Source of the DNA: Stegostoma tigrinum
Taxonomy: Eukaryota
NCBI RefSeq assembly: GCF_030684315.1
Contig: NC_081354.1
Coordinates: 19,338,226-19,402,225 of the forward strand
Reading direction: 5' to 3'
Length of the DNA stretch: 64,000 nt
A program made the translations under genes and the position numbers. Positions 270 to 49,580 of the stretch are shown piece after piece. Numbering within the stretch: position 1 is the first letter of the stretch; the number at the start of each line of letters is the position of its first letter. The notes under the pieces were generated by a model that worked only from the letters and a program-made list of their open reading frames with translations, was not told the DNA's origin and made no database searches.

Positions 270-633
270 GAGGTAATGGGAACTGCAGATGCTGGAGAAT
301 CCAAGATAACAAAGTGTGGGGCTAGATGAACACAGCAGGCCAAGCAGCATCTTAGGAGCACAAAAGTTGACATTTTACCCACTCCAACGTACCTGTCCGT
401 CCTCCCCGGACTGACCTATCCCTTCCCTACCTCCCCACCCATACTCTCCTCTCCACCTATCTTCTCCTCTATCCATCTTCAGTCCGCTTCCCCCTCTCTC
501 CGTATTTATTTCAGAATCCTCTCCCCATCTCCCTTTTCTGATGAAGGGTCTAGGCCCAAAACGTCAGCTTTTGTGCTCCTAAGATGCTGCTTGGCCTGCT
601 GTGTTCATCCAGCCCCACATTTTGTTATCATGA
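270..633. mobile_element. Penelope-like (PLE) pseudo-LTR fold-back mini-insertion, family A
   Basis: Inverted arms ~304-373 and ~558-629 (GATAACAAAGTGTGGGGCT...GGAGCACAAAAGTTGAC vs GTCAGCTTTTGTGCTCC...TTGTTATC). Left arm carries an extra ~30 nt tail; pyrimidine-rich spacer. Flanking AATGAGAGTA at 260-269 and 634-643. Confidence 0.8.
538..565 (+). ncRNA. Minimal hammerhead ribozyme motif (degenerate, GAAA->AAAA)
   Basis: CTGATGA-A-GGGTCTAGGCCC-AAAA-CGTC. Sister copies at 12361-12381 and 23736-23756 retain CCCGAAACGTC. Confidence 0.7.
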
Positions 634-834
634 AATGAGAGTACAGTTTAAAAGCCAGTGACAGTAAAAATGGTCCAATAACCTCCTTTGTGCTGGTCTT
701 ATGATTGTACTTTGAAAATGTTTAAAGGAAAAATCAAATGCATTTTTTTGAGCTCATTAAATTAAATTTGCCTTATATTGCTCAGACTCTCCAAATGGCA
801 TCATCTACTCAAATGTTTGCCATTTTATTATGAA

Positions 835-1375
835 CGTAGAACATAGAACAGTATAGCACAGTACAGGCCCTTTGGCCCATGATGTTGTGCTGAACTTTTA
901 CCCTAAATGTAAGGTCTACCTAACTTCCATCCCTATTTTATACTATCATCCACATGCCTTTCAAACAGTTGCTTAAATGCCCCAAATGAGGACGACTCCA
1001 CTACCCTCTTCGGCAATGCATTCCATGCCCCTACCACTCTCTGAGTAAAGAACCTACCTCTGACCTCTTCCCTATATATATCTCCACTCACTTTAAAACT
1101 ATGTCCCCTCATAATAGCTGCCTCCACCCTAGGAAAAAGTCTCTGGCTGTCCACTTTATTTATACCTCTGATCATTTTGTCACCTCTATCAAGTCACCGC
1201 TCATCCTTCGTCGTTCTAAAGAGAAAAGCCCTCACTCACTCAACCTTTCCTCGTAAGGCCATTCCAGGCAACATCCTGGTAAATCTCCTCTGCACCTTTT
1301 CTAATGCTTCCACATCTTTCCTGTAATGAGGCGACCAGAACTGGACACAATACTCCGGATGTGGCCAAACCAGGC
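835..1375 (-). mobile_element. CR1 LINE 3' fragment
   Basis: ORF 933..1175 gives a CR1 ORF2 C-terminus (RGH.FK...FFTQRVVGAWNALP); (TTCTATG)-like 3' tail near 835-850. Confidence 0.9.
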
Positions 1376-1739
1376 TGGAGCGGATAAATCTTTGAATCTA
1401 GTAAAATCTAATTCAATCTCTATGTTAATGCCTACTTTTGGTTTATGCACGTGAATGATTTTATGAGGATGATACTTCAATTTATTCTTCATCTCCTCCC
1501 ATTTTTCATCTACGCATTGCCACACAGTAGTGTCAACCGAAAACACACAACTTGTATGCAGCCAACAGTCAGGTTTATCTCACCGTCACTTCTTTGGCTC
1601 CTCAAGTGTCTCTGAATTGTCACATTGTTTGTCCGCCATCCAGAATAAACTTATTAAAAATCTCCTTTAACTAAATATTGGGAGGGATGAAGCTGTTGGC
1701 TTTGGTCTCAGCATCTCTTTCTCCCCGCCACCCTTACCC

Positions 1740-2720
1740 ACATAGACCTAAAATGATCATTCCTTGTCCATTGTTTCTATCCCTGGTCACTGTCTTAAAC
1801 TCAGCAAGACTATTTACAGCCGCAGCCTTGTGTTCGACAAAATCTTGAGTTTCTGATCAGTTATCTGCATCAGCCCTGGGACCGCTGCTTCCATCTCTTC
1901 AACACTGCTTCAGTCTTATCTTATCTCAATTTGTCTGCTCAACAAAAACAAGGTTGCTGGAAAAGCTCAGCAGGTCTGGCAGCATCTGTGAAGGAAAAGA
2001 CAGAGTTAATGCTTTGGGTCCAGTGGACCTGAAATGTTATCTCTGATTTTTTCCTTCACAGTTGCTGCCAGACCTGCTGAGCTTTTCCAGCAACTTTGTT
2101 TTTGTTTCTGATTTACAGCATCCACAGTTCTTACGTTTTTTTTTCAGTTTGTCTGCTACCCTTTTATCCTCAATTCCTGATTTTGCCAATGCTCTCCTAA
2201 CGGGCCCCCTATCTTATAGCTTTGATAAACTGGTATTCATTCAAAATCCTAATGCTCATATCTTAAATCCTATGTCATACTTATGATTGCTCAGCTGCAC
2301 TGTTACCCATTGTTCACCTTCACTCTTTCCCATTCAGAAATACTCCAGTTTTAAAATCATCACTCTTGTTTTCAAATTCCACCAAGGGTTTACTATTCCC
2401 TATTGTTTGTAGCTTTCTCTAGTCCTACAGTTTAGAGAATTTAATGCTTCTCCAGCTCTGGCTCTTGCACATCCTTCATTTGAATCGCTCAATTTGTGGC
2501 TTTGGTTTCAGTTGCCTTGGTCCCAAGCTGGAACTTCTTTTCTAATTCTCTCCAAATCCTTCTACTTTTGTAAGATGTACATTAAAGCCCAGTGTTTTCT
2601 TTTTCCAAATTCTCGTGATTTCTCCATATGTGAGGCAGTGTCAAAATTGACAAAATATTATTACTCATGGCAGTCTTGGGGAAGCACCTTAAGATGTTTA
2701 TTCTATTAAATGTTCTAGAT
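1740..2720 (+). mobile_element. Old L2 LINE 3' remnant, interrupted by a PLE mini-insertion
   Basis: Degenerate L2 C-terminal coding (DFANALLTGP...DKLVFIQN; FKIITLVFKF). Confidence 0.6.
1940..2143. mobile_element. PLE fold-back mini-insertion, family B
   Basis: Arms AACAAAAACAAGGTTGCTGGAAAAGCTCAGCAGGTCTGGCAGCA / TGCTGCCAGACCTGCTGAGCTTTTCCAGCAACTTTGTTTTTGTT plus a right-hand tail. TSD TCA(A/G)TTTGTCTGCT at 1926-1939 and 2144-2157. Confidence 0.85.
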
Positions 2721-3552
2721 AGCACTCAAACCTTTTACAGAGAAACACTGAAAGGGAGATGGATGATTTCTGTTAGGGAGAGAGGGGGAGGATGGGAACT
2801 TGCCAGGCAAGTGATGTTCATATTCACATTTTTCCACTTGCTTACTTTGCCTGTATGACTGTTCTGCATCAATACATTTGTTTAAATGTCATGTCTAGAC
2901 TTAACTGCAAGATCATTAACTGAAAGAAAGGGAACTTTTTTTAATGTGGAGGGTCATGGAAAACCTGCAAAATCAGTGATAGGAGGCAATCAACAAGGTT
3001 CTGACTGGCAAAGAAATGGATAAAAAAGACTTTGAAAAAAAACATTTGTTGATTATTGCTTTGAGCAGCATTTTTTTGAGATTGTAACTGTTCTGTTCTG
3101 TGATGGTTCATTCACCAATTGTGCTGGTTACACTGTCCCAAGTAAGGTTTAATATTCATCCAGGTTTTTTATATTCATCATCATTTTCTATTTCCAATTT
3201 GAAAAACATTGCTGTGATTTTTTGATAAGTTTGCATTTTACAATGATTTAATGGGCAGCCTGTTGGAGCACAATTTGTCAGTCAGCTGGCTTTAGTTAAA
3301 ATGTAACTTTTAGTGAAAGAAGCTGCTGCTGGAAGCAAGATTTTGAAATGACTTACCATTTCCAAGTTTTATGATAAAATCGTTTCAAGCCTTATCGGGA
3401 GACTATGCATACAGTGCTCTGGCAAATCTTTGTCATTTGGTTATAAGGACCAATTTTAATTTGACACAACTGTTGGTTTTAATCCTGTAGTCCTAGTAAG
3501 ATGGCCAAATAGTGCTTCCCATGCATCATATAAAAAGCATCAGATGTGAGAT

Positions 3553-3624
3553 AACAAGGTGTAGAGCTGGATGACACCTTGTTGTCTCAGATTCTCCAGC
3601 ATCAGCAGTTCCTACATTCTCTGA
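3553..3624. mobile_element. Very short PLE fold-back insertion, family A
   Basis: GAGATAACAAGGTGT...ACACCTTGTTGTCTC hairpin plus tail AGATTCTCCAGCATCAGCAGTTCCTAC; perfect 14 bp TSD ATCAGATGTGAGAT at 3539-3552 and 3625-3638. Confidence 0.8.
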
Positions 3625-4239
3625 ATCAGATGTGAGATTTTGATTTGCAATCCTACCCGCTGATGATATCAGGCCTCAATTCCTTGTACTCTGCTTCATT
3701 CAATGTCACGCTGTGGCATATTCTACAGCATGCAGCATACTACAACCATGCTAGCTACTCTGGCACATGTATACTGTAATACTATTGAAGGGACCTGGTG
3801 TGCAGTTTGAGGATATTGTTCCCCTTAAACCATCCACATTTTGTGGGGTGGGAATAGGAGAGATGAGGCAGGTTTGGCTCCTCACATAAAGACATGCTAC
3901 AGCTGCTTGGAAAGCATAAGCATACATGCAGGAAATTCTTCTTGTGGTCACGTACCAGCTGTACTTTGAAGAAGTTGTAGATCCTATTGTGTATGAACCT
4001 TGTGTTTAAACAATGTTCATGAATGTCTTGATGGATGCACTCGGTTACACCTTGGAACTTCCACACGGTAGAATGTCAAGGGATTGGATGAAGCTATTGA
4101 AGAAGCTTTGGCAATTTACATCTTGTAGATTGTATGTCGCTGTTGAGGGTGAATCTTGAAGCCAAAAGCGTACACATGAAGTGATCAACAAACCAGAATC
4201 TGACAATATGCACCTTGAGGCACGATGTTTCACGTTCAC

Positions 4240-4475
4240 TCAAAAACAGAAGTTGCTGGGAAAACTCAGCTAGTCTGGCAGTGCCAGTCGAGAGAAAGCA
4301 AAGTTAATGTTTCAGTCCAGTGACCCTTCTACAAAATTGAAGATCTGAAGTCAATTATGAAGAAGGGTCACTGGACTCGAAACGTTGACTCTGCTTTCTC
4401 TCCACAGATGCTGCCAGCAATTTCTGTTTTCTTTACAGATTTCCAGCATTCGCAGTTCTTTTCTGTTTTATTTTA
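4240..4475. mobile_element. PLE fold-back mini-insertion, family B, with hammerhead-like core
   Basis: Inverted arms; ATGAAGA-A-GGGTC-ACTG-GACTC-GAAA-CGTT at 4357-4386. Confidence 0.75.
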
Positions 4476-5710: not shown

Positions 5711-5714
5711 TACA

Positions 5715-8467: not shown

Positions 8468-9375
8468 AAAAATTTGCGGATGACACCAAACTTATATAGT
8501 GGACAGTGAAGAAGGTGTCCTAAGATTACAAAGAGATCTTGATCAATTGGATCAATTTGCTGAGGAGTGGCAGATGGAGTTTAATTTGGATAAATGCGAG
8601 ATGTTGCATTTTGGTCAAAAAATAAGACCAGGGCTTATACTATTAAAAGTAGGGCCTTGTACAGTATTATAGAATAGAGAGCTCTGGGCATTCAGCTACA
8701 TAATTCTTTCAAGTTTGTTTCACATGTGGATAGGATAGTTAAGAAAACATTTAGCACACTTGCATTAATTGCTCAGACCTTTGAGTATATGAGTTGGCAT
8801 GTCATGTTGAGATTGTACAGGACATTGATAAGGCCTCTTCTGGGGTATTCTGTCCAGTTCAGGGAAGGCTATTATTAAGCTGGAAATAGTTCAGAAAAGA
8901 TTTCCCAGGACGTTGCTGGGAATGGAAGGTTTGAGTTATAAGGAGAGGCTGGTTAGAATGGGACTTTTTTCATTGTAGCGTAAGAGATTGAGGGGTGACC
9001 TTATAGAGGTTTAGAAAATCATGATGGGTATACATAAGGCGAATGGCAGGTGTCTTTTTCCCTAGACTGGGGGATTTCAAGACTAGGGGACATATTTCTA
9101 AGGTGAGAGGAGAAAGATTTAAAAATGACATGAGGGGCAACCTTTTTACACAGACAGTGTTTCCTGTGTGGAATGAACTTCCAGAGGAAGTGATGGATGT
9201 GGCTACAGTTAAAATGTTTACAAGACATTTGGATAAGTACGTGAATAAGAAATATTTGGAGGGAGGGATATTGGCCAAACGTAGGTAGGTGGGACTAGTT
9301 TAGTTTGGGATTATGTTCAGCATGGACTGGTTGGACCAAAGGGTCTGTTTCTGTTCTCTATAAATCTATGACTCT
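8468..9375 (+). mobile_element. 5'-truncated CR1 LINE
   Basis: Starts at KFADDTK codons (AAATTTGCGGATGACACCAAA), runs through the ORF2 C-terminus (ORF 9043..9288) to a TCTATGACTCTA tail. Confidence 0.9.
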
Positions 9376-11389
9376 AATATCAATATTCACACTTTAACAA
9401 CAGTTAATATTTTAAAATCATCACAAATGGAGAATGCTCGAGAATGTATTAAAGTTAATTATATTCTTCAGGACAGTTCAGTTTTTGTTCTTGAACTATC
9501 ACAATAAATAAAAGATGTCTGAAATGGCAAGTAACTTTTACAAAAATGTTTTTCCTATAGGTGCAGCCAATAGTATGCATGCTTGTATTTAAATTATAAT
9601 TTTAAAATAAATTGGATAGCTTGGAAAATTCTATATCGCATGATCTGCAAGTTCAGGGATAATCTGACAAAACAAACACAATTCCTTCTGCGTTAAAGTT
9701 GTGGAAATCTCAACTCTCTCAATTGATCATTCTACTGAAGAAAATGTCAGTCTGGGCATTTAGTTCAGATTTGAAACTTGACTCTACTTCCAATAAAGCA
9801 TTATTTCTTTTTTCAATTTTATAGCACACAAAAATACACCCGAATTGAGAGCTATTGTAGCAGCGTCGGTATTGTTGTTGATATTGGTTCCTATAGTTTT
9901 ATTTTACAAGAAACAACAGAAAATTCAGAGAAATAGAAGAAATACAACAGCAGTACCAGGTATGTGACCGATAATCATTTATTAAAAGAAAAATATTATA
10001 CTCAAAATTTAACTTTTTCTCTCCACAAATATACTGCCAGACTAGCTGGGTGTTGACAGACTTTTCTTCATTTATCCCCCTCTGTTTCACAAAACCTGTA
10101 GTTGTCAATGTGGCCACTGGGAACATTTACACGTTATGTTCCTGGCTAATTAGTTCTGTTCTATTTTGCAGTTAGAGAGAGTCTGCATCTCATTACGTGG
10201 TTGGTTCGCTGCCACCATTCTCTTTAAGTGTACGCATCTGCAAGGCGTGGGTGGTTTAATTTCTTCTTCAAAGTAGAAGACACAAATTATATATAAAGAA
10301 TAGAGGGCAACTTAAATGATCAATATGCACCAAAAATTTTAAGATGATTAATATTAGCATAGAGAAAATATTGGAGGAACCTGAGGGATTAAAGTTTAAC
10401 GTAGCCCAAGGGTCTGATGGCCTATATCCTCAAGTTCTAAAAGTAAATGTTGTATTGATATGCTGGTTAATATTTCCCAAAATTCCCTATATTATGGGAC
10501 AGTCTCAGCAAATTTGAAATTTTCAAATGTAACATCACAATTCAAGAAAGGACTGACAGAGGAAATAGAGATACAGGGTAGTTGACCTGACCTGGCCTCA
10601 GCTGTTAGGAAATGTTGAAAACTATTTTTAAGGAAATCTTTACAATACACTTTAAAAATCACAATATGCTCACATAAAGTGAACATCCAGTGGCAAAAGG
10701 AAAATTGTTTCTGTCAATTTTATTACAGATCTTTGAACCCATAGATGTATTATATCAGGATTTCCAAAAGACATTCAATAAGATGCCATATAAAACTTTT
10801 GTTGTAATAAATGAGCATAGACAGAGCATTGATTCATGAATAAGAGGCAAATAGTAATGACATATGGGAAATCTTCAAGTTTTTAGGCTGTGTCTGATGG
10901 AAAGTCACAAGGAAAAGTATGAGGACCTCAGATATTTACAATCAATATTGAAGATTTAGATGAATAGGAAGAGAGCATGTTTCTAAGTTTCAGGATAATG
11001 TAAAGCTAGTGGGAATGCAAGCTGCAAGCACACAGTGAGATATAAAGCATTATAGACAGGTTTAGTGAGTGGGCAACAAGATAGCAGATAGAGTATTATG
11101 TGAGAGAGAGCAAAATTATTCACTTCAGTTGTAAAAGAAAGGCTGTATTTTTTTAAAAGTCAAGAAACGTTTAAAGAAACTTGTTTGTATTTGTACAAGA
11201 AACATCAACACTTAACATACAGGTGCAACAAGCAGTTGGGAAAGCAAATGGCATATTGTTCTTTATTGAAAGGTTTTGGAGAGAAGGAATAACAAAGTCT
11301 TGCCACAACTATACAGGACTTTGCGACTACTCCCAGGACTCTGTGCACAGTTTTGCCTTCCATATTTAAAAGATATACTTGCATTACAT

Positions 11390-12566
11390 GACTTACTTGA
11401 TTTACATAGATGATTTGGAGTTGGGGACTGTGTGTGGTGTGTCAAAATTTGCAGATTACACTAAGGTGAGTGGTACAGCAAAGTGTGCAGAAGACACTAA
11501 AGTCTACAGAGGGATATAGATTGTCTAAGTGAGTGGGCAAAGGTCTGGCAGATGGAGTACAATGTTGATAAGTGTGAGGTCATCCATTTTGGTAGGAATA
11601 ACAGCAAAATTGACTATGTTTTAAATGGTAAAAACTTGCAGCACGCTGCTGTGCAGTGGGACTTGGGTGTCCTTGTGCATGAATCGCTAAAAGTAGGATT
11701 GCAAGTGCAGCAGGCAATTAAAAAGGAATTTTAAAACAGGGAGGCTTTGCTGCAGCTGTATCGGATCCTGATGAGGCCACACTTGGAGTACTGTGTGCAG
11801 TTTTGGTCTCCTTACTGCAGAAGGGATATACTAGCACTGGAGGGGGTGCAGAGGAGATTCACTCAGTTGATTCCAAAGTTGAGAGACTTGGATTATGAGG
11901 AGAGACTGAGTAGGCTAGGATTATACTCATTGGAATTCAGGAGAATGAGGGGAGATCTTATGGAAACATATAAGATTACGAAGGGAATTGATAAGGTGAG
12001 GCAGGGAGGTTGTTTCCATTAGCAGGTGAAACTGGGACAAGGGAGCCTAGCCTCAAAATAATGGGAAGCAGATGTAGGACTGAGGTCAGGAGGAACCTCT
12101 TCACCCAAAGGGTTGTGAATCTGTGGAATTCCCTGCCCAGTGAAGCGGTTGAAGCTACCTCACTGAATGTGTTTAAGGCAAGGCTAGATAAATTTTTGAA
12201 CAGTAAAGGAATTAAGGGTAATGGTGTACATGCGGTTAAGTGGAGATGAGTCTCAAAAAGATCAGCCATGATCTTATTAAGATAATAAAGTGTGGAGCTG
12301 GATGAACACAGCAGGCCAGGCAGCATCTCAGGAGCACAAAAGCTGACGTTTCGGGCATAGAGGGTCTAGACCCGAAACGTCAGCTTTTGTGCTCCTGAAT
12401 GCTGCTTGGCCTGCTGTGTTCATCCAGCTCCACACTTTATTATCTTGGATTCTCCAGCATCTGCAGTTCCCATTATCACAGCCAAGATCTTATTGAATGG
12501 CAGGGCAGGCTCGAGGGGCTGGATGGCCTACTCCTGCTCCTAGTTCTTATGTTATTATGTTCTTAT
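11390..12566 (+). mobile_element. Younger 5'-truncated CR1 LINE
   Basis: ORFs 11552..11734, 11747..12022 and 12010..12249 (YNVDKCEVIHFG; RPHLEYCVQFWSP; FTQRVVNLWNSLP); tail (TTCTTATG)n at ~12543-12566. Confidence 0.92.
12279..12478. mobile_element. Young PLE fold-back mini-insertion, family A
   Basis: Near-perfect ~75 bp inverted arms meeting at ~12360, right-hand tail; TSD CAGCCA(T/A)GATCTTATT at 12263-12278 and 12479-12494. Confidence 0.9.
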
Positions 12567-15785: not shown

Positions 15786-16034
15786 TGAGGTGGTAGGAGT
15801 TTTGCCAGCTGGCTGAAGAGCTGCCTAAAATACCCAAGCTGATTGTTTAAGGCGGGGACCGCCAAAACAAACAGCTACACCACTGGTGGACTTTCAGTTG
15901 GAATTAAGGCCCAATGGAAGCAGAAGCTTTGCCAGCAAGAACTGCTGGACACTTCAGAAGCACTTGGCTGCATCATGCAGGGGACCCTGATGGCTGAAGC
16001 TGAAAGGCTACTGAGGATTGCAGAGGAGCACTGA

Positions 16035-16625
16035 GTGTAGAAGTTGGCAGGCCATGTTGTAGCTGAGCAGAATATTAGTCAAGTCACTTTTGGAATACTA
16101 CATTCAATTCTGGTCACCCTGCTATAGGAAAGTTGCTGTTATACTTAAAAGGGTGCAGAAAAGATTTACAAGGCTGTTGCTAGGGTTGGGAGGTTTGAAC
16201 TATAGGGAGGGCTGGGGCTATTTTCCCTGGAGCTTTGAAGGCTGAGGGGTGACCTTTATTAAAGTTTCTAAAATCATGAGGCACATAGATAGGGTCAATA
16301 GCTAAGGTCTTTTTCCAAAGGTAGGGGTGTCCAAAAGTAAATGGCATAGGTATAAGGTGAGAGGGGCAAGATTTAAAAGGCATCTACAGGACAACTTTTT
16401 CATGCAGAGGGTGGTGTGTGCATGGAACGAGCTGCCAGAGTAAGTGATGGAGGCTGTACAATTACAACACTTAAAAGGCATCTGGATGGGTACATGAATA
16501 CGAAGGGCTTAGAGGGACTTGGACAAAATGCTGGCAAATGGACTTAGATTAATTTAGGATATCTGGTTGGCATGGACCAGTTTGGCCAAAAGGTCTGCTT
16601 CCAAGCTGTACGACTCTATGACCAC
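16035..16625 (+). mobile_element. CR1 3' fragment
   Basis: CAATTCTGGTCACCCTGCTATAGGAA (QFWSPCYR), TTCATGCAGAGGGTGGTG, ACTCTATGA tail. Confidence 0.88.
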
Positions 16626-16990: not shown

Positions 16991-17175
16991 TTTGAGGGGA
17001 CAGAGGTCATGGGGTAAGTGGGGCAGGGGTTCTCGATAGCAAGACCATAGGGGTGGATCTCAGTCTGACACTGTCCTGTTCCATGTACAGCCACTCAATC
17101 AGGTACCGACCCAATAACTCAGGTGGACTAGTTGCCTGCACAGGTTGACCTGTCAGGCAAGTAGCATGGCAACAG

Positions 17176-17303
17176 AGATAGTAGGAACTGCTGATGCTTG
17201 AGAATCTGATATAACAAGCTGTAGACCTGGATGAACACAGCAGGCTAAGCAGCATCAGAGGAGCGGGAAAGCTGATGTTTCAGGTCTGGACCGTTCTTCA
17301 GAA
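17176..17303 (-). mobile_element. Single-arm PLE pseudo-LTR insertion, family A
   Basis: Tail plus arm up to the hammerhead; flanked by ATGG(C/A)AACAG at ~17166-17175 and ~17304-17313. Confidence 0.75.
17274..17301 (-). ncRNA. Minimal hammerhead ribozyme motif with intact core boxes
   Basis: Minus strand CTGAAGA-AC-GGTC-CA-GACC-T-GAAA-CA-TC. Confidence 0.6.
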
Positions 17304-18080
17304 ATGGAAACAGGACTCCTTTCAGGTGGGTCGATTCTAGTGATGGTGAACTGAGGCGATGAAGTGGACTTCAACTGACCACCTTAAGGGCCTAATGTAT
17401 TGGTGGGATGAGATGGTTTACTATAGAAATTCCCCACCCAAACATAATTCAGTCAAAGGGGGAAGGTGATGGTGTCAGATACACCACCACCTCACCTCAT
17501 TACATGGCCTTCCAAAACTCGCCAACTCCCAGAGCATAATGTTCTACTCTGCTTTTCTCTCTCGCAGGTGTTGCCAGACCTGCCGAGTATTTCCAATGTC
17601 TTCTGCTTTCAATCCAGAATTTCAGCACTTACAGTATTTTGCTTTTATATTTGGAATCCATTTGACTATCCAACAGGAGGAGAATACCTTCATCTTATTA
17701 TTACGAACTGCATGAATTTGAAACTGTCTCAGAGAAAAAGAGAGAAATAGGTCAATGCCCAATCCATCCATTCTTGATTTTTAATGATGCAATTTCAACA
17801 ATTCAATGTCTTAGGCAAACTGGAATTGTCATTTACCATCATAAAGTATTCATGTCATGCTCTATGTTTCAGGAAAAGAAACACTTGAGATACCACAAGT
17901 TTAAAGCTATAAAAACAGGCATCACCTCATTTGGAAAAATCCTTAGCAGTGTTTTAGAAATGAGGGTAAATCAAAAATTTCTTCTTTGCTCAGTGACACA
18001 TTGGAAAAGACTGTGATGAGTCAGATATTACTTTTGGAGAGTTTCATTCAACTAACACAGAACTCCTTGGTCTTTTTCAG

Positions 18081-22084: not shown

Positions 22085-22680
22085 AAAGAATGATGAAACA
22101 GTTCCAAGTAAGGAAGATGTGTGACTGAGAGGAAGGTTTGCAGGTGATGGTTTCCCAATGTCCTTCTATCTGGTAGAGGTTGCAGGTTTGGAAAGTGCTG
22201 TCGAAAGAGCCATGGTGAGTATACTACAGTCCATCCTGTAGATGGTAGACACTGCTGTCATTGTGCATCAGTGGCAAAGGGAGTGAATGTTGAACATGGC
22301 CGATGGGATGCAAATCGAGTGGGCTCTTCATCCTAGATGGTGTTAAAGGTTATTGAAACAGCATCCATTCAGACAAGTTATGAGTATTTCTTCACACTCC
22401 TGATGAGACTGGGGACAGGTTTTGGAGAGGCAGGAGGTGAGTTACTCATGGCAGAACTTCCAGCCTCTGATCTGTTTTTTTTAAATTCCTTCAGGGAATG
22501 CGATAGGTAAATACCAGTTCGGCCAACATTTTCCACCCATCCCTAAATGTCCAGAGGGCAGCTAAGTGTCTGTCATATTGCTGTGGGTCTGGAATCACAT
22601 AAAGGGCAGACCAGGTAAGGATGACCGTTTCCTTCCTAAAGGACATTAGCGAACCAGATGGTTTTTTTCCTGACAATCTG
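22085..22680 (-). mobile_element. LINE 3' fragment (family of 5715-6865) plus SINE tail
   Basis: CATCCTGTAGATGGTAGACACTGCTG and ACACTCCTGA...GAGTTACTC match 6100-6560; 22490-22680 matches the SINE body at 57440-57600. Confidence 0.65.
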
Positions 22681-26328: not shown

Positions 26329-28157
26329 TTATAGTTTTCAAGAAGATTTGTATTTTGGTTTGCAGGTGAGGTTGTAGACATGCTTGCTGAGCTGGTGGGT
26401 TTGATTGCAAATGTTTTCTCACCCTGCTAGATAACTTTGTCAGTGCGCCTCCGATGAAGCCTCAGTATTCTGTCTGTCTTGTTATTTATATGCCTCAGTT
26501 TGTTGGGGTGTTTGGGATCACTTCCAGTCCTGTTTCTCAGTGGTTTGTACACAAGGTCTAATTTAATGTGTTTGTTGGAGTTCTGGTTGGAATACCAGGC
26601 CTCTAGGAATTCCCTGGCATGTCTCTGTTTGGCTTGTGCAATTATGGAGGAGTTGTCCCAGTCCAATTCTTGACCCTCGTTGTCTTTGTGTAGTGAGACA
26701 AATGAGAAATGGTTGTGTCTCTTGGTGGCTAGTTGGCGTTCGTGTATCTGTATTGTCAGTTTTCTTTCAGTTTAGCCTGTGTAGTGTTTCTCACAGTCCT
26801 TGCAATGTATTTTGTATATTACACCAGTTTTGCTGGTTTACCATTGCCAGTAGCTGTCGTAGGGTGGTTGTTGGTTTGTGGGCTATTCTGACACCTAGAG
26901 GTCTGAGTACGCTTGAGATCATCTCTGAAATGTTCTTGATATACAATAAAGTGATTAATGATAAGTAACAGCAGGTTGTGCTTTTTGGGTATCCATTCCT
27001 TTTGGAGACTCTGTATGGGTCCTCCTGTTCTGATTTGCGTAGTTCCAGTTTGCTGCAATGTGTTGTGGCTCATTTAAATAGCATCCTGATGCTGCTCCAT
27101 TTGTGGGGCATTGGGGTGGTTGCTACTGTAATTGAGCATGGGGTCCGCATCTGTGGTCTTTCTATATATACACACATTAGTCTGGAGTTCCCTGTTGTTT
27201 TTGCATTGTACCAGTACAACCAGGAAGGGTGGTTAGTCATTGTTCTCCTCCTTTTTTGTGAATTTTATCCCAGTGGGTTTCTTCTAGTTTTATGTGTTTA
27301 ACAAATACAAAGATGTCACCTACATATCGGACCCAAAGTTTGGGTTGTGTAGTGGGGAAGTGCTGTCTATTCTAACCTTTGCACTACTGCTTCTGCAATC
27401 AGTCCTGATATTGGGGAACACACTGGTGTTCTGTTGAAGGTGAAGTGAGTTGTGAGGCACAGAGGTAGTAGTTTCATGGTGGTGTCCTTATTAATGTTGT
27501 CGGTATTCTGGACAGCCTGTCTACTTGATTTGTCCTGTAGTGTGGCAATTGTCTCTTTAGCTAGGTCAATGTTTATGGATGTAAATAGTGTTCTTATGTC
27601 AAAGGATATCATCACCATGTCCTCTTCTATCCTAGTGTCCTTGGTCATGTTGAGGAATTCTTGGGATGAGTGGATGGAGAGGGTAGTGTTGTCCACTAGA
27701 TATTTCAATTTCTGTTGTAGTTCTTGGGCCAATAAATATGTTGATGTACCTGGTAGTGAGACAATGGGTCTGAGCGAGAACTCCCAGTTTGTGCACCGTG
27801 GAGTGTCGAATGAAGCGAGGTGTGTTCGAACCCTCTGGCTTCATTTTTGGGTAGTCTGTTTTGATGATGTCTCCTGAGTTGTGCAATTTCTTCAGGGTTG
27901 TTGTAATCTGGGTCCCTCACTATGGTGTTGAATCTACCGCCATCTAGGGGTAAGTGTCAGTATATGCGAGTAGTGCATGAGCTTTCTTGATGTATTGGGC
28001 TCTATTGAAGATTACTGTCATGCTTTCTTCATCCACACCTCAAAAAATTGAGGCATATAAAAAGAATAAGCAGGACAGAACACTGACACTTCACTGGAGG
28101 CGCAGTGATGCTGATAGCTAGCAGGGTGATGAAATATTTGGAACTGAACCCACTGGC
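26329..28157 (-). mobile_element. Penelope-like retroelement (Penelope/Poseidon type), 5'-truncated, with inverted pseudo-LTRs
   Basis: RT motifs MISFDIRTLFTSI, SPISGLIAEAVVQRLE, LWVRYVGDIFV (~27305-27340); GIY-YIG VIYKIHCKDCEKHYTG (~26775-26825); AREFLEAW. Inverted repeat ~26385-26500 vs ~28045-28157; flanking TGAGTAAA(T/C)ATCT at 26316-26328 and 28158-28170. Confidence 0.92.
26427..28015 (-). pseudogene. Frameshifted PLE reverse transcriptase / GIY-YIG endonuclease ORF
   Basis: Pieces 27705..27920, 27632..27886, 27367..27732, 26819..27073 and 26427..26666 are collinear PLE domains with frameshifts; catalytic YVDD reads YVGD. Confidence 0.88.
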
Positions 28158-28814
28158 TGAGTAAACATCTCTTCTTCTTTGTCTTCAACCAGAGAGCCTG
28201 TATTCTTAAACTTTGTCCCTGGTTTTGGTTTCCCCGCAAGAAGAAACTCCTCCCAGTGCTCTCAGAATCTCATAGGATTCAATTGGATCCCCACTTATTG
28301 CTCTAAGCTCCATGGGATACACACAAACCTAACTAGTTCAACCTATCTTCAGAACACAAGCCCTTCTTCCTGGGAAGGAGTGAACGTGCTACAAACTGTT
28401 TCCAAAGCAATTATATTTTTTTTCCAAATAAGACAACCAGACCTGTACATGATACTCTAGATGTTGTCTCACCAATACCTGTCCAGCTGCAGTAAAAGCT
28501 CCCCACTTTTATATTCCTTTGCTCTTGCAATAAATGACATTTCAATTGCTATCCTAATCACTTGCTATATCTCTGTACTAATTTTATGTGAGTCATGTAC
28601 CAGGATACTCAGATCTCTATGTACTATCAAATTCTGTAATCTCGCTCTCATTTAAAAACAATAAGGCTTTTTTACTCTTCCTGCCAAATTAGACAAATTC
28701 ACATTCACCCACTTTACACTCCTTCTGCCAATCTTTTAGCCATTCAGTTAACCTGTCGATACCCCTGCGCAGACTCTCTATCTCGTCTTGACAATTTACT
28801 ATCTTACTTATTGT

Positions 28815-29022
28815 AAAGCAAAGAACTGTGGACGCTGGAGATCAAAAACAAATAAAAAACAGAATTTGCTGCAGAAACTCAACATGGTCTGGCAGCATCT
28901 ATGAAGAGAATTGTCCTTTTCTATTCTGAAGTGTCACTGAACTCGAAACATCCACTCTGTTTTTCCTTTCACAGGTGTTGCCAGATTTGCCGAGTTTGTC
29001 TTGTAATTTCTGTTTTCATTTG
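28815..29022. mobile_element. PLE fold-back mini-insertion, family B (degenerate)
   Basis: Tail plus arm AAAGAACTGTGGACGCTGGAGATC...GGTCTGGCAGCATCT; opposite arm TGTTGCCAGATTTGCCGAGTTT; remnant CTGAAG..TCACTGAACTCGAAAC. Confidence 0.7.
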
Positions 29023-33418: not shown

Positions 33419-33745
33419 GGCAGCCCAGTGGCTCACTGGTTAACGCTGTTACCTCACAGCACCAGAGACCTGGGTTTGATTCCAGCCTTAGCGGACTGTC
33501 TGTGTGGAGCGTGCATGTTCTCCCTGTCTCTCTGTGGGTTTCTGCCAGATGCTCTGGTTTCCTCCCACAGTCCAAAGATGTGTGTGTTACATGGATTGGC
33601 CATGCTAAATTACCCATAGCATTCAGGGATGCTTGGGTTAGCCATGAGAAATGTAGGGTTAAAGGGATGGGTCTGGGTGGGATGCTCTTCGGAGGGTTGG
33701 TTGGACTGACTGGCCTGTTTCCACACTTTAGGGATTCTACATTAA
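33419..33745 (+). mobile_element. HE1-type (V-SINE) tRNA-derived SINE
   Basis: A box TGGCTCACTGG, B box GGTTTGATTCC, core TGTGTGGAG..TGCATGTTCTCCC...TTCCTCCCACAGTCCAAAGATG, CR1-like tail. Confidence 0.85.
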
Positions 33746-34070
33746 AAAAAAGTTTGTTTCTAAAATGCTGTACTGTGACCTGCTGTCTTGTAATTAGAAA
33801 TTCTAATTAGATTTGGCACCTTCATTAACAATTTTTGGCTGACTAGGGAAAATAACTGATGTTGAACTGATAACTCACTAATTTTGATGACCAATTTAGA
33901 TGTGTAGTTGTCCAAAGTCAATTTTTAGTCCTAAAATGGAGAAAAACAATCTTAAGATCAGCTTTAGTTGTAGAATTTGAGCGCCATCTGCTGTCAGGGC
34001 TACAGTAACAAAATCAAATTGAAGCAAGTATGATTGGAGCAAATGAGGATATCTAAATGAAAGTCAATAT

Positions 34071-34358
34071 CATAGAATCCCTGCAGTGGGCAAGTTTGGA
34101 GTTTGCAGTTTGGTCCATCAAATCCACACCGACCCTCAAAAGAGCATCCCCCCCCAGACCCACCCGCTTCATCCCTGCATTTCTCTCTGCCGATCCACCT
34201 AACTTGCACATCTTTGGACTATGGGAGGAAACCACAACACCCCAGAGGAAACCCACACAGGCACAGGGAAAACATGCAAACTCTACATTCTGGTCTGGAA
34301 TTGGACCTCAATCCCTGGCACTGTGAGACAGCAGTGCTAACCTCTGAACCACCGTGCT
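34071..34358 (-). mobile_element. HE1-type SINE
   Basis: Reverse complement of the same family (GCACGGTGGTTCAGAGGTTAGCACTGCTG...). Confidence 0.85.
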
Positions 34359-40569: not shown

Positions 40570-41450
40570 ACATACAAGGAAACTGACCCTTTTGTCCAAC
40601 CAATCCATGCTGACCATAATCGTAAACTAAACTAGTCTCACCTGCCTGCATTTGACCAATAACCCATCAAACATTTCTTATTCATGTACTTATCAAATGT
40701 CTTAAGCGTTGTAACTGTACCAACATCCAACACCTCTTCTGGAAGTTCAGTGCACACATGCACCACTCTCTGTGCAAAACAGTTGACCCGCATTGTTTTT
40801 TTAAGCTCTTTCTCCTCTCACATTAAAAATATCACCTGTGTCTTTAAACCCCGCTATTCTATGGAAAAGACACCTGCCATTCACCTCATCTATGCGCCTT
40901 ATGATTTTATAAGCATCTACAAGGACACTCCTAAACCTCCTATGTTCCAGTGAGAAAAAGTCCCAGCCTATCCAGCCTCTTCTTATAACTCACCTTCCAC
41001 TCCCAGCAACATCCTGGTTGAACCCTCTCCAGCTTACTTATCCTTCCTGTGACAGCGCGAGCAAAACTAGACAGTGTTATAGAAGAAACCTCACCAAATT
41101 TCTGAATAAGCTCAACATGACCAACTCCTATACTCAGAGGTCTGAACAATGAAGGCAGCCATGCTAAAGGCCATCTCAACCAACCTGTTTACATGAAATG
41201 CAAACTCCAAAAAATTATGTACCTGAACTCCCAGGTGTCTCTTTTCTACAACACCACCCAAGGCCCTACTTCTAATTGTCCAAGTCCTGCCCTTGTTTGT
41301 TTTACCAAAATGCAATACTTCGCCATTATCTAAATTAAACTCTGTTAGCCATTCCTCAGCCCATTGACCCAATTAATCAAGATTGTTTTGTAATCTTAGA
41401 TAACCTTCTTCACTGTCCACTACACCACAAATTTTGGTGTCATCTGCAAA
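40570..41450 (-). mobile_element. 5'-truncated CR1 LINE, tail-to-tail with the previous copy
   Basis: ORF 41112..41372 (WAEEWLTEFNLDNGEVLHFG); begins at FADDTK codons; same subfamily as 8468-9375. Confidence 0.88.
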
Positions 41451-44649: not shown

Positions 44650-45380
44650 CAAAACTGAGCAAACATGAGGCAATGTGGGCCACCACGAGGCAATGTGGGC
44701 CACGAACAGCAGCAGTAACATTGTATTCAACCACAATCTGGAACCTCATGGGCTGGTTCATCCCCCATTCTAAAATTAACAGGGGAGGACAAACTCTGTT
44801 AACAAAGATTGAAAACAGTAATGCCAGGAGCAGCATCAGGCTGACCAACAAATGAGTTATCAACTTGAGAGCTACAGGACTACTCACATGCCAAATAGCA
44901 CAGGCAAAATGCAATAGATGGAGTTAGACAATATGACAACCAACAGGTCAGGTCTAAATTCTGCAGCCCTGACGCTTCCTGTCATGGATGGTGGTGAACA
45001 ATTAACAAATATCTATACGTCAAGACTCCACAAACATTCCCATCCTCAAAAATGGGGACAAGTCCAACACATCACTGCAAAACAAAAGGCTGAAGTATAC
45101 GCATCCATCTTCATCCGTAAGTGCCAAGTGGACGATGAATCTTGGCCTTCTTCTGGTATACCCGGCATCACAGATTCCAGTCTTCAGCTACGTCGACTTC
45201 ACTCCACATGAAATCAAAAAAATGGCTGAATGTACTGGATTATGGGCCTGACAACACTGCATGCTTCAGCCATGCCGCTAGTCAAGCTGCTTTAAAGGAT
45301 AACCACACCACTGGCAATTGCCTGACATTGCAGAAAACTTACCTCAGCATAAAAAAAAGCATAAATCCAACCTGGACAAT
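44650..45380 (+). mobile_element. LINE internal fragment (CR1-clade second family)
   Basis: ORF 44918..45211 (HITAKQKAEVYASIFIRKCQVDD), an EN-RT linker-like segment. Confidence 0.6.
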
Positions 45381-45389
45381 GAATAACAA

Positions 45390-45573
45390 ACAGAAATTGC
45401 TGGTGAAACTCAGCAGGTTCAGCAGCATTTGTGGGAAGAAAGCAGAATTAACGTTTCCACCCAGTGACTCTTCTGATGAAGAGTTAGCTCTACTTTCTTT
45501 CCACAGATGCTGCCAGATCTGCTGATTTAAAACAGGAGTTTCTGGTTTTGCTTCAGATCTCCAGCATCCGCAT
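45390..45573. mobile_element. PLE fold-back mini-insertion, family B
   Basis: Arms CAGAAATTGCTGGTGAAACTCAGCAGG / AGATGCTGCCAGATCTGCTGA, central CTGATGAA; flanks AATAACA(G)AACAGAAA at ~45382 and ~45574. Confidence 0.7.
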
Positions 45574-45923
45574 CAATAACAGAACAGAAACAATAATCCT
45601 GAACGTTTTACTTGAATGAGAACCCCACACCACGTACTCTACAGGACTGCAGTCTTTATATGAAACAGGACATAATCCAATTTCCAATTGGTTCACTTGT
45701 CGCCACTTTGCCGAGTTGTAATATTGAGTTCCCAATCAGAAGGCACTGACCTTGACTTTCAACTAATTCTGAACCATGCAGTTGGGCCACTTGGCAATTT
45801 CTCATCCTGGCCTCACCAAGGCAAATCTTTTTTAATTTTCAGAGCATGCATCTGTTCAACCAGAGACTGTGTCCCCTCTCACATTCTGCTCAGTAACTCT
45901 GAGAAGCAAAACAGTCCTCCTTG

Positions 45924-46285: not shown

Positions 46286-46568
46286 GGGTGGCATGGTTGC
46301 TCAGTGGTTAGCACTTCTACCTCGGTGCCAAGAACCCTGGTTTGATTCTGGCCTTGGCTGACTGCAAAATCCACGCAGTCACACTCTCCCTGTGGCTGCA
46401 TGAGTTTGCTCTGGTTTTCTCCCACAGTCCAAAGATGTGCATGTTGGGTAGGGTGGCCATGGAAAATTGCCCTAGAATGTGCTGGCTAAGTTGATGCAGT
46501 GTTAGGGTAGGGGATATGAGTCTGGGGGAACGCTCTTTGGAGGGTCAGTGTGGACTTAATGGGCCGAA
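46286..46568 (+). mobile_element. HE1-type SINE
   Basis: GGGTGGCATGGTTGCTCAGTGGTTAGCAC, GGTTTGATTC, CCCACAGTCCAAAGATGTGC. Confidence 0.85.
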
Positions 46569-47364
46569 AATACTCAGAGAAAGGGAGGTCTCTAGCATTC
46601 AGATAAAGAATTCAAATAGGCAAGTTCATGGCACCTTAGCCTTTATTGCAAGAAAATCTTATACAGGATTTTGGTGCAACTAACCTGGAGTGTCATGTGT
46701 AATTCTGGATGCCATTTAAGAAGAAAAAAATATATCACTTGCATTGGAGGTAGCATTGTGATGGTTCACAAGATTGGTTCATGAAGTGAGAGGACTTCCT
46801 ACAATGAGAGGCAGAGTAAATCAGGTCTCTCAGATTTAAAAAACCAAGAGGTGAACTCATTGAAACATTATGAAGGTCCTTGATGAAGTAGGTACTGTAT
46901 CCCAGGCTGGGCAATGTAGAACACGGGCCAATAATTTAGCTCTGAGATAGGGACATGTTTCATCACTCAACAGGTTGTGAATCTTTGGAATTTTCTTCCA
47001 CAGAAAGCTGTTGGGGTCAGGTGGTGAGGTACCACCATGGTGACAGTTCAGTTCGCTGAGTTGGCCAAATGGTTGGTGTGTGATGCAAATCAATGCCAAG
47101 AACACTGGTTCAATCCCTATGTCAGCGGTGGTAGTTCGTTGTCCGTGTACCTTGAACTGCTCTGCCTCTATTATTCTTCATGGGCTACAACTAAAGTCCA
47201 ATTAGTCCAGAGGGTTGTGGGTGATCCAACAATTAATGCTGAAATAAATGTTTGATCGTACAAAGTAAAAGGAATAAGATGAGCAGACAGAAAGTAGAAA
47301 TAAAGCCCGAGAGCAGCCATGACCATATAAAATGGTGAAGTAGGATGCACAGATTTACTAGACA

Positions 47365-47545
47365 AAAAAATGACCAAGAACTATGGTTGCTGGAAGTCAG
47401 AAACACAGACAGAAATTGCTGGGAAAAAAGACATAGCCAGTGCGGAGAGAAAGCAAAGTTAACATTTCGGGTGCAGTGATTTTTCTTCAGAACTCTGATA
47501 CTGCCAGACCTGCTGAACTTTTCTAGCAGTTCCTGTTTGCATTCA
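47365..47545. mobile_element. PLE fold-back mini-insertion, family B, in a CR1 3' UTR
   Basis: Minus-strand GTT-CTGAAGA-...-CCC-GAAA-TG-TT-AAC at 47458-47493; short inverted arm to the right. Confidence 0.7.
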
Positions 47546-47799
47546 AACGTTTACTCTGGCTCCTATCTCTTACACTCTTATTCTCAGTGAGATTGCCTAC
47601 TCTCTCAGGAAGGCCTCACATTACTTCCACTAAATCGAGCAAAGTGTACTGCAGATTCTTCAACTTCAGTTCAATTGTATAAAATTGTACTGTACAATTG
47701 GCTTGTAAATATCTGAAGAAAGCATCAGTGATAACACTCGATCACTAAACATTGAACCACAATAGTAGGGGTGGGTGGGTGGCGGCGGCGCAAGAAAGG

Positions 47800-49580
47800 A
47801 GGGGGAGTGGCGTTTTTGATTAGTGATAACATTACAGCAGTATTTAGGGAGGATATTTCTGGGAATATGTCCAGGTAAGTTATTTGGAAATAAGAAAAGA
47901 ATGATCACCTTATTGGGATTGTACGAGAGACACCCCCCCAATAGTCAGAAGGAAATGGAGAAATAAATTTGAGGAGATCTCAGTTATTTGTAAGAACAAT
48001 AGGGTGGTTATGGTAGGGAATTTTAACTTTCCAAACAAAGACTGAGACTGCCAGAGTATTAAGGGTTTTTTTGGAGAGGAATTTAAGTGCGTACAATATA
48101 ATTTTCCGATCCAGAATGTGGATGTACCTATGAGAGAAGGCGTAAAACTTGACCTACTGTTGGGAAATAAGGCAGGGCAGGTGACTGAGGCGTCAGCAGG
48201 GGAGCACTTCGGGAGGAGTGACCATAATTCTATTAGTTTTAAAACATTAATGGTAAAGGATAGACTGGATCTAAAAGCTAAAGTTCTAAACTGGAAGAAA
48301 GCTAATTTTGATGGTATTAAGCAAAACATTCAACAGTTAATTGGGGGCAGACGTTTGCAGGTAAAGGGTCGGCTGGAAAATGGGAAGCATTCAAAAATAA
48401 GATAATGAGAGTCCAGAAACTGTATGTTCCTGTTAGGGTAAAGGGCAAGGCTGGTAGTTGTACGGAATGCTGGATGACTAGAATAAGAAGGAAGCAGATG
48501 TCAGGTAGAGACAGCTGAGATCATGTGAATCTCTGGAACAGTATAAAGGAAATAGGAGTACATTGAAGAAGAAAATCAGTAGGGCGATTTAGGGCCATAA
48601 GATAGCTTTGGCAAATACAGTTAAAGAGAATCCAAAGGGATTCTACAAATACTTATTCTAGTCATCCAGACAAATGGGAGGTGCTGCATTTTGGAAAAAC
48701 AAATCAGGCCAAGAGTCATTCATTTAATGGCAAGGTCCTGGGGAATGTTGCTGAACAAAGAGACCTTGGAGTGCAGGTTAGTATTTCCTTGAAAGTGGAG
48801 TTACAGGTAGATAGGATAGTGAAGAAAGTGTTTGGTATGCTTGCCTTTATCGGTCAGGGCATTGAGTATTGGACTTGAGAGGTCATATTGCAACTATATA
48901 GGGAATTAGTTAGGCCACTATTGGAATATTGCATGCAATTCCGGTCTCCCTGTAATTGGAAGGATGTTGTGAAACTTGAAAGGGTTCAGAAAAGATTCAA
49001 AAGGACGTTGCTAGGGTTGGAGGGCTTGAATTATAGAGAGAAGCAGAGGAGACTGGGGCTATATTCCCTGGAACGTCAAAATGCTAAGAGGTGACCTTAT
49101 AGAGGTTTACAAAATCATGAGGGGCAATGAACAGGGTAAATAGCCAAGGTCTTTTCCCCAGGGTGGGGACCCAAAACTAGAGTACTTGGGCTTAAGGTGA
49201 GAGGGAAAAATTTAAAAGGGACTCAGGGTAACAAAGTGTGGAGCTGGATAAACACAGCAGGCCAAACAGCATCCAGCTCCACACTTTGTTATCTTGGATT
49301 CTCCAGCATCTGCAATTCCCATTATCTCAGGGACTCAGGGTGTAGCTTTCTCATGCAGAGGGTGGTCCTTGTATGGAACGAGCTGCCACAGGAAGGGGAG
49401 GAAGCTGGTATAATTACAACATTTAAAAAGGCATCCGAATGGGTATATGAATAGAAAAAGTTTAGAGGGATACCGTGCAAATGCTGACAAATGGGACTAG
49501 ATTTATTTAGGATATTGGTCGGCATGGACGAGTTGGACTGAAGTGTCTGTTTCCATGCTGTATATCTCTATGACTCTAAG
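47800..49580 (+). mobile_element. CR1 ORF2 with large internal deletion
   Basis: Endonuclease (VMVGNFNFP, LDLLLGN, GRSDHNSISF) to ~48650 (ENPKGFYKY), then directly post-RT (LHFGKTNQ, RPLLEYCMQF) and tail. Confidence 0.88.
49230..49328. mobile_element. Short PLE fold-back insertion, family A
   Basis: TAACAAAGTGTGGAGCTGGAT / ATCCAGCTCCACACTTTGTTA hairpin plus tail; perfect 13 bp TSD AGGGACTCAGGGT at 49217-49229 and 49329-49341. Confidence 0.9.

Follow-up and report, generated by a model that had tools for sequence, protein, structure and literature searches.

Endonuclease-bearing (EN+) Penelope-like elements (PLEs) are found as inverted, 5'-truncated copies in head-to-head orientation, with target site duplications (TSDs), palindromes at the junction and a hammerhead motif in the pseudo-LTR (pLTR), and a tail of 30–40 bp often lies at one end only (PMC8557442, PMC3846280, PMC8969392). 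Earlier work on these elements has already described inverted truncated pLTRs, a one-sided tail of 30–40 nt, the cutting of both strands and a pair of RT start sites (PMC8557442, PMC3846280, PMC11167929). For PAc (Poseidon_Ac) of Anolis carolinensis, it is reported that both strands are cut and extended, that two adjacent internal RT start sites bound the tail, that the RNA template is uncleaved and that the protein is a predicted dimer; this account, to the extent that it is drawn on here, is silent on the pairing of start sites within an insertion, on the cut stagger and on cDNA joining (PMC11167929). What happens late in PLE integration, and what part the PLE hammerhead plays, are questions that PMC11167929 and PMC8557442 describe as open. 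A literature search for short palindromic PLE remnants found no paper describing them, and UCON13, as far as PMC5753468 is drawn on here, is only listed as Penelope.

Anatomy of the insertions

Our sample is one 64 kb window of Stegostoma tigrinum (the whole stretch of 64,000 nucleotides, hereafter the window), with 11 listed insertions and four extra remnants. All 11 of the insertions named in the original prediction are present where it had placed them, with sizes of 72–361 bp, and its description of inverted arm pairs plus a single-armed copy, 17176, holds as well: 10/11 are head-to-head pairs and 1/11 has one arm. The element 3' ends face outward in every two-armed copy (10/10, all pairs being minus-then-plus). 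Eight inserts are bounded by TSDs, and the limits of copies 4240, 28815 and 47365 are set by alignment alone. The two families proposed earlier, A and B, are both real but not separate, as each profile retrieves the arms of the other, which makes them one homologous lineage. Family A in turn comprises subfamily A1 (270, 12279 and 49230), for which the tail sequence quoted earlier for the whole family is right, and subfamily A2 (3553, 17176 and 23633), for which it is not.

Copy 270 of subfamily A1 spans 273–633 (361 bp), with a tailed left arm at 273–375 (minus strand), an untailed right arm at 531–633 (plus strand) and a pyrimidine-rich middle at 376–530, seen in this single copy, that we take as putative element sequence upstream of the ribozyme. 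Its 13 bp TSD (260–272, plus strand, and 634–646) matches at 12/13 positions (p = 0.003). Copy 12279 (12279–12478) joins an untailed left arm (12279–12361) to a tailed right arm (12361–12478) within stem II, between TSDs at 12263–12278 and 12479–12494 (15/16 match). Copy 49230 (49230–49328) has an untailed left arm (49230–49273) and a tailed right arm (49270–49328) with a 4 nt junction overlap, and its TSD is a perfect 13 bp (49217–49229 and 49329–49341).

The smallest insertion (72 bp) belongs to subfamily A2: copy 3553 (3553–3624) consists of an untailed left arm (3553–3574) and a tailed right arm (3574–3624), with a perfect 14 bp TSD (3539–3552 and 3625–3638). Copy 23633 (23633–23822), also with a perfect 14 bp TSD (23619–23632 and 23823–23836), has its tailed arm on the left (23633–23721) and its untailed arm on the right (23725–23822). 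The single tailed arm of copy 17176 (17176–17303, minus strand) is truncated just 5' of the hammerhead core (17274–17301) and has a borderline 10 bp TSD (17166–17175 and 17304–17313).

Among the B copies, 1940 (1940–2143) joins an untailed left arm (1940–2025, minus strand) to a tailed right arm (2024–2143, plus strand) in hammerhead loop II, between TSDs at 1926–1939 and 2144–2157 (13/14 match), and 45390 (45389–45571; borderline 10 bp TSD at 45379–45388 and 45572–45581) joins an untailed left arm to a right arm with a shortened tail at the hammerhead core. No TSD was detected around the remaining three, namely 4240 (4241–4472; the left arm is untailed, and the right arm is tailed but has lost 20 nt by deletion) and the old copies 28815 (28815–29021; tailed left arm, untailed right arm) and 47365 (47366–47538; the left arm is tailed and extends to the 5' strand of hammerhead stem I, and the right arm is short and untailed). 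Four further B remnants had not been noted before: one decayed, apparently untailed arm at 10005–10074 (plus strand), one tailed arm at 17531–17650 (plus strand) and one arm with a partial tail at 23253–23334 (minus strand), the latter two without TSDs, and a tail region alone at 62872–62911 (plus strand).

TSDs of 10–16 bp had been reported around most copies. Tested against 1500 random flank pairs, six of the 11 copies have significant TSDs (p ≤ 0.003), all of 13–16 bp, and swapped flanks never reached such scores (0 of 182 pairs); two of the 11 are borderline and three undetectable. The borderline pairs, at 17176 and 45390, match at 9/10 positions (p about 0.03), and that of 17176 weakens to p = 0.09 at a wider search tolerance. 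The significant lengths differ from the 8–10 bp described for Adineta PLEs (PMC8557442, PMC3846280, PMC8969392). Empty paralogous sites confirm two of the insertions: copy 12279 interrupts a repeat, a paralog of which, near 5630, carries a single copy of the target site, and five paralogs of the repeat around copy 49230 are without 111–112 nt, which equals the insert plus one TSD. An AT-rich target preference was not seen in the eight sites (TSDs 38–80% AT, window 60%), whereas PAc prefers AT-rich or ATT targets (PMC11167929).

While the tail of EN+ PLEs is often confined to one end, here exactly one arm is tailed in every pair, as established by an unbiased profile scan (10/10). If the two strands chose their ends independently, a long and a short end would be paired in all ten copies with a probability of at most 2^-10 (p ≤ 0.001). 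Measured past the first TCCAGC, the TSD-anchored short ends lie at 19–26 nt and the long ends at 54–60 nt, except in copy 45390, which is outside both windows (16 and 41 nt). Tails are 28–41 nt long across the six copies with significant TSDs. The two start sites predicted earlier fit these ends, not as fixed points about 30 nt apart but as windows about 7 nt wide, separated by 28–41 nt. TCCAGC is present twice, the two occurrences being 30 nt apart in A and 29 nt apart in B, and each is 19–30 nt before an end. An origin of the tail by tandem duplication of the 30 nt before it finds no support beyond TCCAGC: the identity is 0.36 at lag 30 (A) and 0.47 at lag 29 (B), with no clear peak.

Hammerhead motif and inner junctions

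The arms carry a minimal type I hammerhead motif, a hallmark of PLE pLTRs that the earlier note overlooked. A minimal-hammerhead descriptor matches the window at 538, 4357 and 23729 only, every time within a copy; two of the three matches have at most one mismatch, compared with none such in 20 shuffles, and both fit the published consensus (PMC4209133, Fig. S3). The motif of copy 270 (538–565, plus strand) has one core mismatch and a predicted cut after 565, that of copy 4240 (4357–4386, plus strand) has a 5 bp stem II, a palindromic ACGT helix III and one core mismatch, and that of copy 23633 (23729–23756) is decayed. All of the hammerheads are mutated, a fully intact ribozyme being kept in no copy, and an Rfam scan of the window (E ≤ 5) gave six weak matches from which the hammerhead family is absent. 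In common with the minimal hammerheads of metazoan PLEs, the A/B motifs have the CUGANGA core, the extra nucleotide before G10.1, the G-C closing pair, GAAA and the palindromic CG/U helix III; unlike them, family A has a stem I of only about 2 bp (PMC4209133). By eye the family A motif appears nearest to that of Acropora Neptune, a lead from sequence comparison and not a clade test. The PLE hammerhead alignment of that source, as far as it is drawn on here, includes no shark sequence, and for Schistosoma dual motifs are described 100–700 bp apart on opposite strands (PMC4209133).

Junction position is different in each copy, with no two alike. Inner ends lie inside the uncut ribozyme in 12 of 21 cases, and 14 of the 21 arms run past the hammerhead cut site; none of the 21 inner ends falls within 3 nt of the cut, and we therefore reject hammerhead cleavage as the cause of truncation. 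The termination rate is 13-fold higher between −14 and −45 relative to the cut site, where 12 ends fall in 197 nt, compared with 8 in 1756 nt; the nominal p = 6e-8 for this is an overstatement, because the inner ends were curated by hand, the interval was picked after the data were seen and each copy contributes two non-independent ends. The untailed arm is nested within the tailed arm in three of the ten pairs and comes within 3 nt of this in two more, and in the other five it extends further inward, by 12, 23, 42, 43 and 181 nt. In 12279, 1940, 4240 and 45390 the inner ends agree within 3–4 nt, even though the two arms start about 35 nt from each other. Variable, non-nested junctions could also be the outcome of central deletions that followed insertion.

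We also looked for conserved RNA structure downstream of the ribozyme and discarded it: a single arm folds like shuffles (z = 0.65), and proposed downstream stems pair in 87% of cells with covariation that is not significant (34/500 shuffles as high).

Probable assignment to Penelope-like elements and a proposed mode of integration

We consider it probable that the copies are extremely 5'-truncated pLTR insertions of an endonuclease-bearing PLE lineage (subfamilies A1, A2 and B), each made independently, by two-strand priming, by an autonomous element located elsewhere. The original reading of them as minimal PLE products and not MITEs gains support from the minimal hammerhead, the variable TSDs, the empty sites, the variable junctions and the one-sided tail; it stops short of proof of PLE membership because no RT or GIY-YIG ORF could be linked to the A/B termini, none adjoining them in the window. 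Two protein searches with translated arms gave 0 matches among 55 and among 5 candidates. A third gave three matches, of which two are very long proteins matched in repeated stretches, taken for low-complexity matches, and the last, a whale-shark gene model, does no more than include family A sequence. No direct (partial tandem) pLTR pair is present among the arms found, the copies being too short to display one. The same anatomy is seen in an unrelated RT-bearing element at 26329–28172. A/B differ from EN+ PLEs in general in that only pLTR sequence is left, in 72–361 bp, with about 15 insertions per 64 kb.

DNA-transposon superfamilies have characteristic TSD lengths; here neither TSD length (13–16 bp) nor insert size is uniform, and the ends, one tailed and one not, do not match as terminal inverted repeats and shift by about 7 nt between copies. 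In L1 twin priming the element RNA is primed by two target 3' ends, which leaves an inversion within TSDs, much as in A/B, but the segments joined in an L1 inversion do not overlap and the insert finishes in poly(A), while in A/B one sequence is copied into both arms, from starts that lie about 35 nt from each other. DIRS elements are defined by inverted termini without TSDs (PMC8969392), and TSDs are present here. Non-LTR retrozymes, which are derived from PLE pLTRs and are present in the one chondrichthyan sampled, resemble A/B in being short, non-coding and hammerhead-bearing (bioRxiv 10.64898/2026.07.22.740005); they consist of head-to-tail tandem units, each with a hammerhead, in contrast to the head-to-head pairs or single arms with TSDs seen here.

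In the mechanism that we propose, an RT–GIY-YIG protein, probably a dimer, would cut both strands with a stagger of 13–16 nt, the stagger being given by the TSDs and the enzyme presumptive. Each 3'-OH would prime cDNA on element RNA, yielding two arms with their RNA-3' ends outward, which is the geometry seen here, and cDNA synthesis would begin in the distal window on one strand and some 35 nt upstream of it on the other, presumably on a single RNA, leaving a one-sided tail. The template would not be cleaved by its own hammerhead (14/21 arms pass the cut site), both cDNAs would tend to stop in the ribozyme and may be joined via 1–4 nt overlaps or self-complementary stems, with fill-in to follow, and the inserts would be dead-on-arrival footprints. 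The earlier proposal that both strands are primed at two start sites fits this anatomy but has largely been published for PAc, which also shares with our model the cutting and extension of both strands, the internal sites bounding the tail, the uncleaved template and the predicted dimer (PMC11167929). The two differ in start context (an AC-rich stem loop in PAc, U-rich windows in A/B), and PAc showed no strand difference in start site whereas long and short ends are paired in A/B, which, like the AT-rich target preference of PAc, counts against the proposed model (PMC11167929). That both arms share one short RNA had also been suggested; we infer the sharing, and the RNA need not be short because PAc starts internally and the right arm of copy 270 copied about 250 nt.

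More tentatively, PLE integration may be an obligatorily paired form of twin priming, in which a dimer on one uncleaved RNA uses two motifs about 30 nt apart, with a 13–16 nt stagger and one cDNA per site, and the hammerhead serves as a structured palindromic place to stop and join and not as a nuclease; we hold this to be possible rather than probable. A search of the freely accessible literature found no paper stating the pairing of start sites or a junction role for the hammerhead.

Arms within one copy have private variants in common and are always of the same subfamily (5/5 two-armed A copies), for which arm-to-arm conversion could be an alternative source. Shared variants would also be expected if a single strand, either the first cDNA or an antisense RNA (PMC3846280), folded back at a palindrome and was copied into the second arm, an endonuclease resolving the intermediate to leave a one-sided tail (PMC8557442). 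Such self-priming accounts for the one tail per insertion and for junctions clustered in the self-complementary hammerhead region, and the three nested copies, with the two that come within 3 nt, are as it predicts. It requires, however, that the untailed arm lie within the tailed arm, and in the five copies where the untailed arm is longer inward it is not a copy of the tailed arm; moreover, in PAc reactions in vitro, sense RNA served as template for the extension of both target strands (PMC11167929). We regard self-priming as unlikely. The same grade of doubt attaches to priming of each strand on a separate RNA, for example in a dimer held by the hammerhead palindromes, with the long/short asymmetry arising from the protein dimer or from trimming. 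Minimal hammerheads are thought to act as dimers (PMC4209133), two molecules would make it easier to copy the overlap region two times, as the model demands, and the expected anatomy is otherwise identical; against this stand the common subfamily and private variants of the two arms, which co-transcription from one locus would also explain.

A palindromic non-autonomous master, either a MITE-like DNA transposon or a SINE-like unit, that moved whole and acquired its varied junctions through later central deletions would fit copies that are short, high-copy, non-coding and built of inverted arms. Yet the ends differ by a 28–41 nt tail, the outer ends vary by about 7 nt, TSDs are 13–16 bp, all junctions are different, one-armed copies exist and a hammerhead motif is present; this explanation is very improbable and largely refuted here.

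Two-strand priming on element RNA remains our preferred reading. To what is published the window adds the strict long/short pairing, the non-nested arms in 5/10 copies and the clustering of inner ends in the ribozyme. Minimal insertions that are ORF-less and bounded by TSDs isolate the late integration steps, each recording a stagger, a start on each strand and a junction, so that twin priming and self-priming could be told apart in shark assemblies already at hand. If paired twin priming is true, shark genomes would be rich in such footprints (in this window two-armed copies number about one per 6 kb, should that be typical) and would offer a readout of the mechanism in vivo.

Hairpins and genic context

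None of 90 selected non-repeat ORFs and none of nine others has a convincing Pfam family that would point to a host gene. Three Rfam matches lie within copies, all of them to miRNA models and sub-threshold; in practice, minimal copies resemble MITEs or microRNA hairpins. Self-folding repeats are strong substrates for A-to-I editing; in lizard, heavy editing of Penelope has been described (PMC5625713). Six of the ten two-armed copies are predicted to form a helix of at least 46 bp, and the folds of copies 3553 and 47365 do not surpass those of shuffles, so that a long hairpin would be seeded roughly once per 10 kb in the window and not every 6 kb or so as was first estimated.

Inverted insertions and their target sites

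Aligning the window against itself and searching it for inverted repeats recovered all 11 of the short insertions (72–361 bp, each named by its start position) claimed in the original prediction. When profiles made from the arms, which are truncated copies of a putative Penelope-like element (PLE) terminal repeat, were scanned over the window, they re-found the known arms plus four one-armed B remnants (near 10005, 17531, 23253 and 62872). The two proposed sequence families, A (270, 3553, 12279, 17176, 23633 and 49230) and B (1940, 4240, 28815, 45390 and 47365), are both present but homologous, and since each profile matches the arms of the other family, A and B form one lineage. Family A subdivides into A1 (270, 12279 and 49230) and A2 (3553, 17176 and 23633), and its sequence also occurs in one whale-shark gene model. 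In all ten two-armed copies (17176 has a single arm) the arms are ordered minus then plus, so that the same repeat end faces outward on both sides; arms within one copy have common private variants and a common subfamily.

Target site duplications (TSDs) of 10–16 bp had been reported around most copies. A flank search with controls returned significant TSDs in six of the 11 (13, 14, 16, 14, 13 and 14 bp; p ≤ 0.003 versus 1500 random pairs, with 0/182 swapped-flank pairs scoring as high) and borderline ones (9/10 matches) at 17176 and 45390, but none at 4240, 28815 and 47365, nor at the two B remnants examined (17538 and 23258). Two copies were inserted into older repeats, presumably CR1-type LINEs, which provide empty-site controls within the window. 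The repeat surrounding 49230 has five paralogs that are shorter there by 111–112 nt, corresponding to the 99 bp insert and one 13 bp TSD, and the target site of 12279 is present once in a paralog near 5630. One LINE-like family used for such controls has six diverged 3′ fragments (8473–9377, 16028–16623, 40579–41450, 48669–49579, 56074–56586 and 58082–58537). The copies are a real feature; the open-access literature searched yielded no paper on these shark families or on paired start-site use.

Outer ends and ribozyme-centred junctions

With the TSDs as anchors and positions counted from the first TCCAGC motif, short (untailed) ends lie at 19–26 and long (tailed) ends at 54–60, with per-copy tails of 28–41 nt; copy 45390 is an outlier, ending at 16 and 41. 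Every two-armed copy (10/10) pairs one long with one short end, an outcome with a probability of at most 2^-10 under independent strand choice, or 0.016 when only the six copies whose TSDs are significant are counted. These ranges and this pairing indicate that the start sites are windows, not the two fixed positions first proposed, and that their use is coupled between strands, a modest conclusion from a small sample. TCCAGC occurs twice in the arms of both families (e.g., 12422–12457), spaced 30 nt in A and 29 nt in B, and each occurrence is 19–30 nt ahead of an arm end; the pair are candidate protein-binding sites. Wider periodicity around the repeat was not significant in A or B arms.

The inner part of the arm is a minimal type I hammerhead motif, overlooked in the original prediction. 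A descriptor scan matched only at 538, 4357 and 23729, all within copies; two matches have at most one mismatch versus none in 20 shuffles, and at up to two mismatches 4 of 20 shuffles also yield matches. The minus strand has an additional core at 17301. There is no intact hammerhead among the copies, and an Rfam scan reported none. As in the PLE min-hammerheads of PMC4209133, an extra base precedes G10.1, the closing pair is G–C and helix III is palindromic.

Inner ends were hand-curated for 21 arms. Fourteen extend beyond the predicted cut site, with no arm of the 21 ending within 3 nt of it, which argues that the template was uncleaved. An uncleaved template is also described for PAc, the PLE of Anolis carolinensis, for which PMC11167929 further describes cutting and extension of both strands, two start sites that account for the tail, and a predicted dimer. 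Twelve arms stop within the ribozyme, in the interval 14–45 nt 5′ of the cut, at a rate 13-fold higher than elsewhere, the p-value of this excess being only indicative because the interval was chosen post hoc and paired ends are non-independent. In four copies the inner ends of both arms agree within 3–4 nt even though their starts are separated by ~35 nt (25 nt in 45390), an indication that the join is set by position. The ribozyme-centred junctions, drawn from few copies, are a modest addition. In copy 47365 the arms meet (47490–47500) at hammerhead stem I, which has 7 nt of complementarity between its two strands; the stem may have mediated the join, with a short deletion afterwards.

The copies themselves record a 13–16 nt stagger, outward-facing 3′ ends, coupled long and short ends, ribozyme read-through and non-nested arms. 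The original prediction saw them as minimal PLE integration products; the core of that mechanism is already in print for PAc, and coupled starts and ribozyme-centred junctions are the testable addition here. One RNA would serve both primers, with the cDNAs joining via short overlaps or ribozyme palindromes; L1 twin priming offers a comparison.

Self-priming or fold-back with subsequent endonuclease resolution, as outlined in PMC8557442 and PMC3846280, would suit the three of ten copies that are nested and two more within 3 nt, but in the other five the untailed arm extends past the inner end of the tailed arm by 12–181 nt (the 181 nt value takes 376–530, a stretch present only once in the window, as element sequence; otherwise it is ~27 nt). 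Since fold-back from the tailed strand needs nesting, it fails for half of the copies, barring later reshaping by central deletions, and we regard it as improbable. Templating of the two arms by two separate RNAs is about equally doubtful, and a palindromic master as the source is very unlikely. The 376–530 segment of copy 270 is pyrimidine-rich, lies upstream of the hammerhead and contains a splice-acceptor-like TTTCAG; possibly it represents 3′ UTR or the end of a retained PLE intron.

Relationship to Penelope-like elements

The copies combine a hammerhead, a head-to-head truncated inversion, a one-sided tail and variable TSDs, all PLE features, and A and B very probably belong to the PLEs. 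Membership is likely but not proven because the link to a reverse transcriptase (RT) plus GIY-YIG endonuclease ORF was not made, neither among ORFs in the window nor in protein searches with translated arms. MITE features were absent when tested, in agreement with the earlier claim. The defining features of retrozymes and of DIRS elements were likewise looked for and not found.

An element at ~26329–28172, unrelated in sequence to A/B, carries broken RT remnants on the minus strand (52–55% versus Stegostoma and Chiloscyllium proteins), and its motifs suggest the Penelope/Poseidon type. A 138 nt inverted terminal copy (28035–28172) abuts its truncated 5′ end, which gives this coding copy the same head-to-head design as the A/B copies. 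Its right end is ambiguous, since a 12/13 TSD partly coincides with bases alignable to the arm as well. Putative endonuclease remnants are likewise on the minus strand; the element also has an AC-rich tail at the left and, judged by eye, a decayed hammerhead-like motif near 28105–28138. A second small remnant of the same kind of RT protein lies at 44676–44919 (tblastn E = 6e-7).

Hairpins and neighbouring repeats

Copy 12279 folds at −158 kcal/mol (z = −24.6). Helices of at least 46 bp are found in six of the ten two-armed copies; for two, folding is no stronger than in shuffles. If transcribed, the hairpin copies could be editing substrates, for which PMC5625713 gives a precedent in Penelope copies. 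A Pfam search of 90 chosen non-repeat ORFs plus nine more identified no host gene in the window. SINE-like repeat copies occur at 33428–33754, 34123–34287, 46296–46562 and 50731–51027; two are in opposite orientation ~400 bp apart and might be a further source of dsRNA. A 241 aa ORF at 13631–14629 matches a GDSL/SGNH esterase weakly (E = 0.003) and resembles a LINE ORF1 remnant. A weak tRNA-like match with an insertion at 57663–57746 (minus strand), related to 22548–22666, is likely to be the head of a SINE derived from a tRNA.
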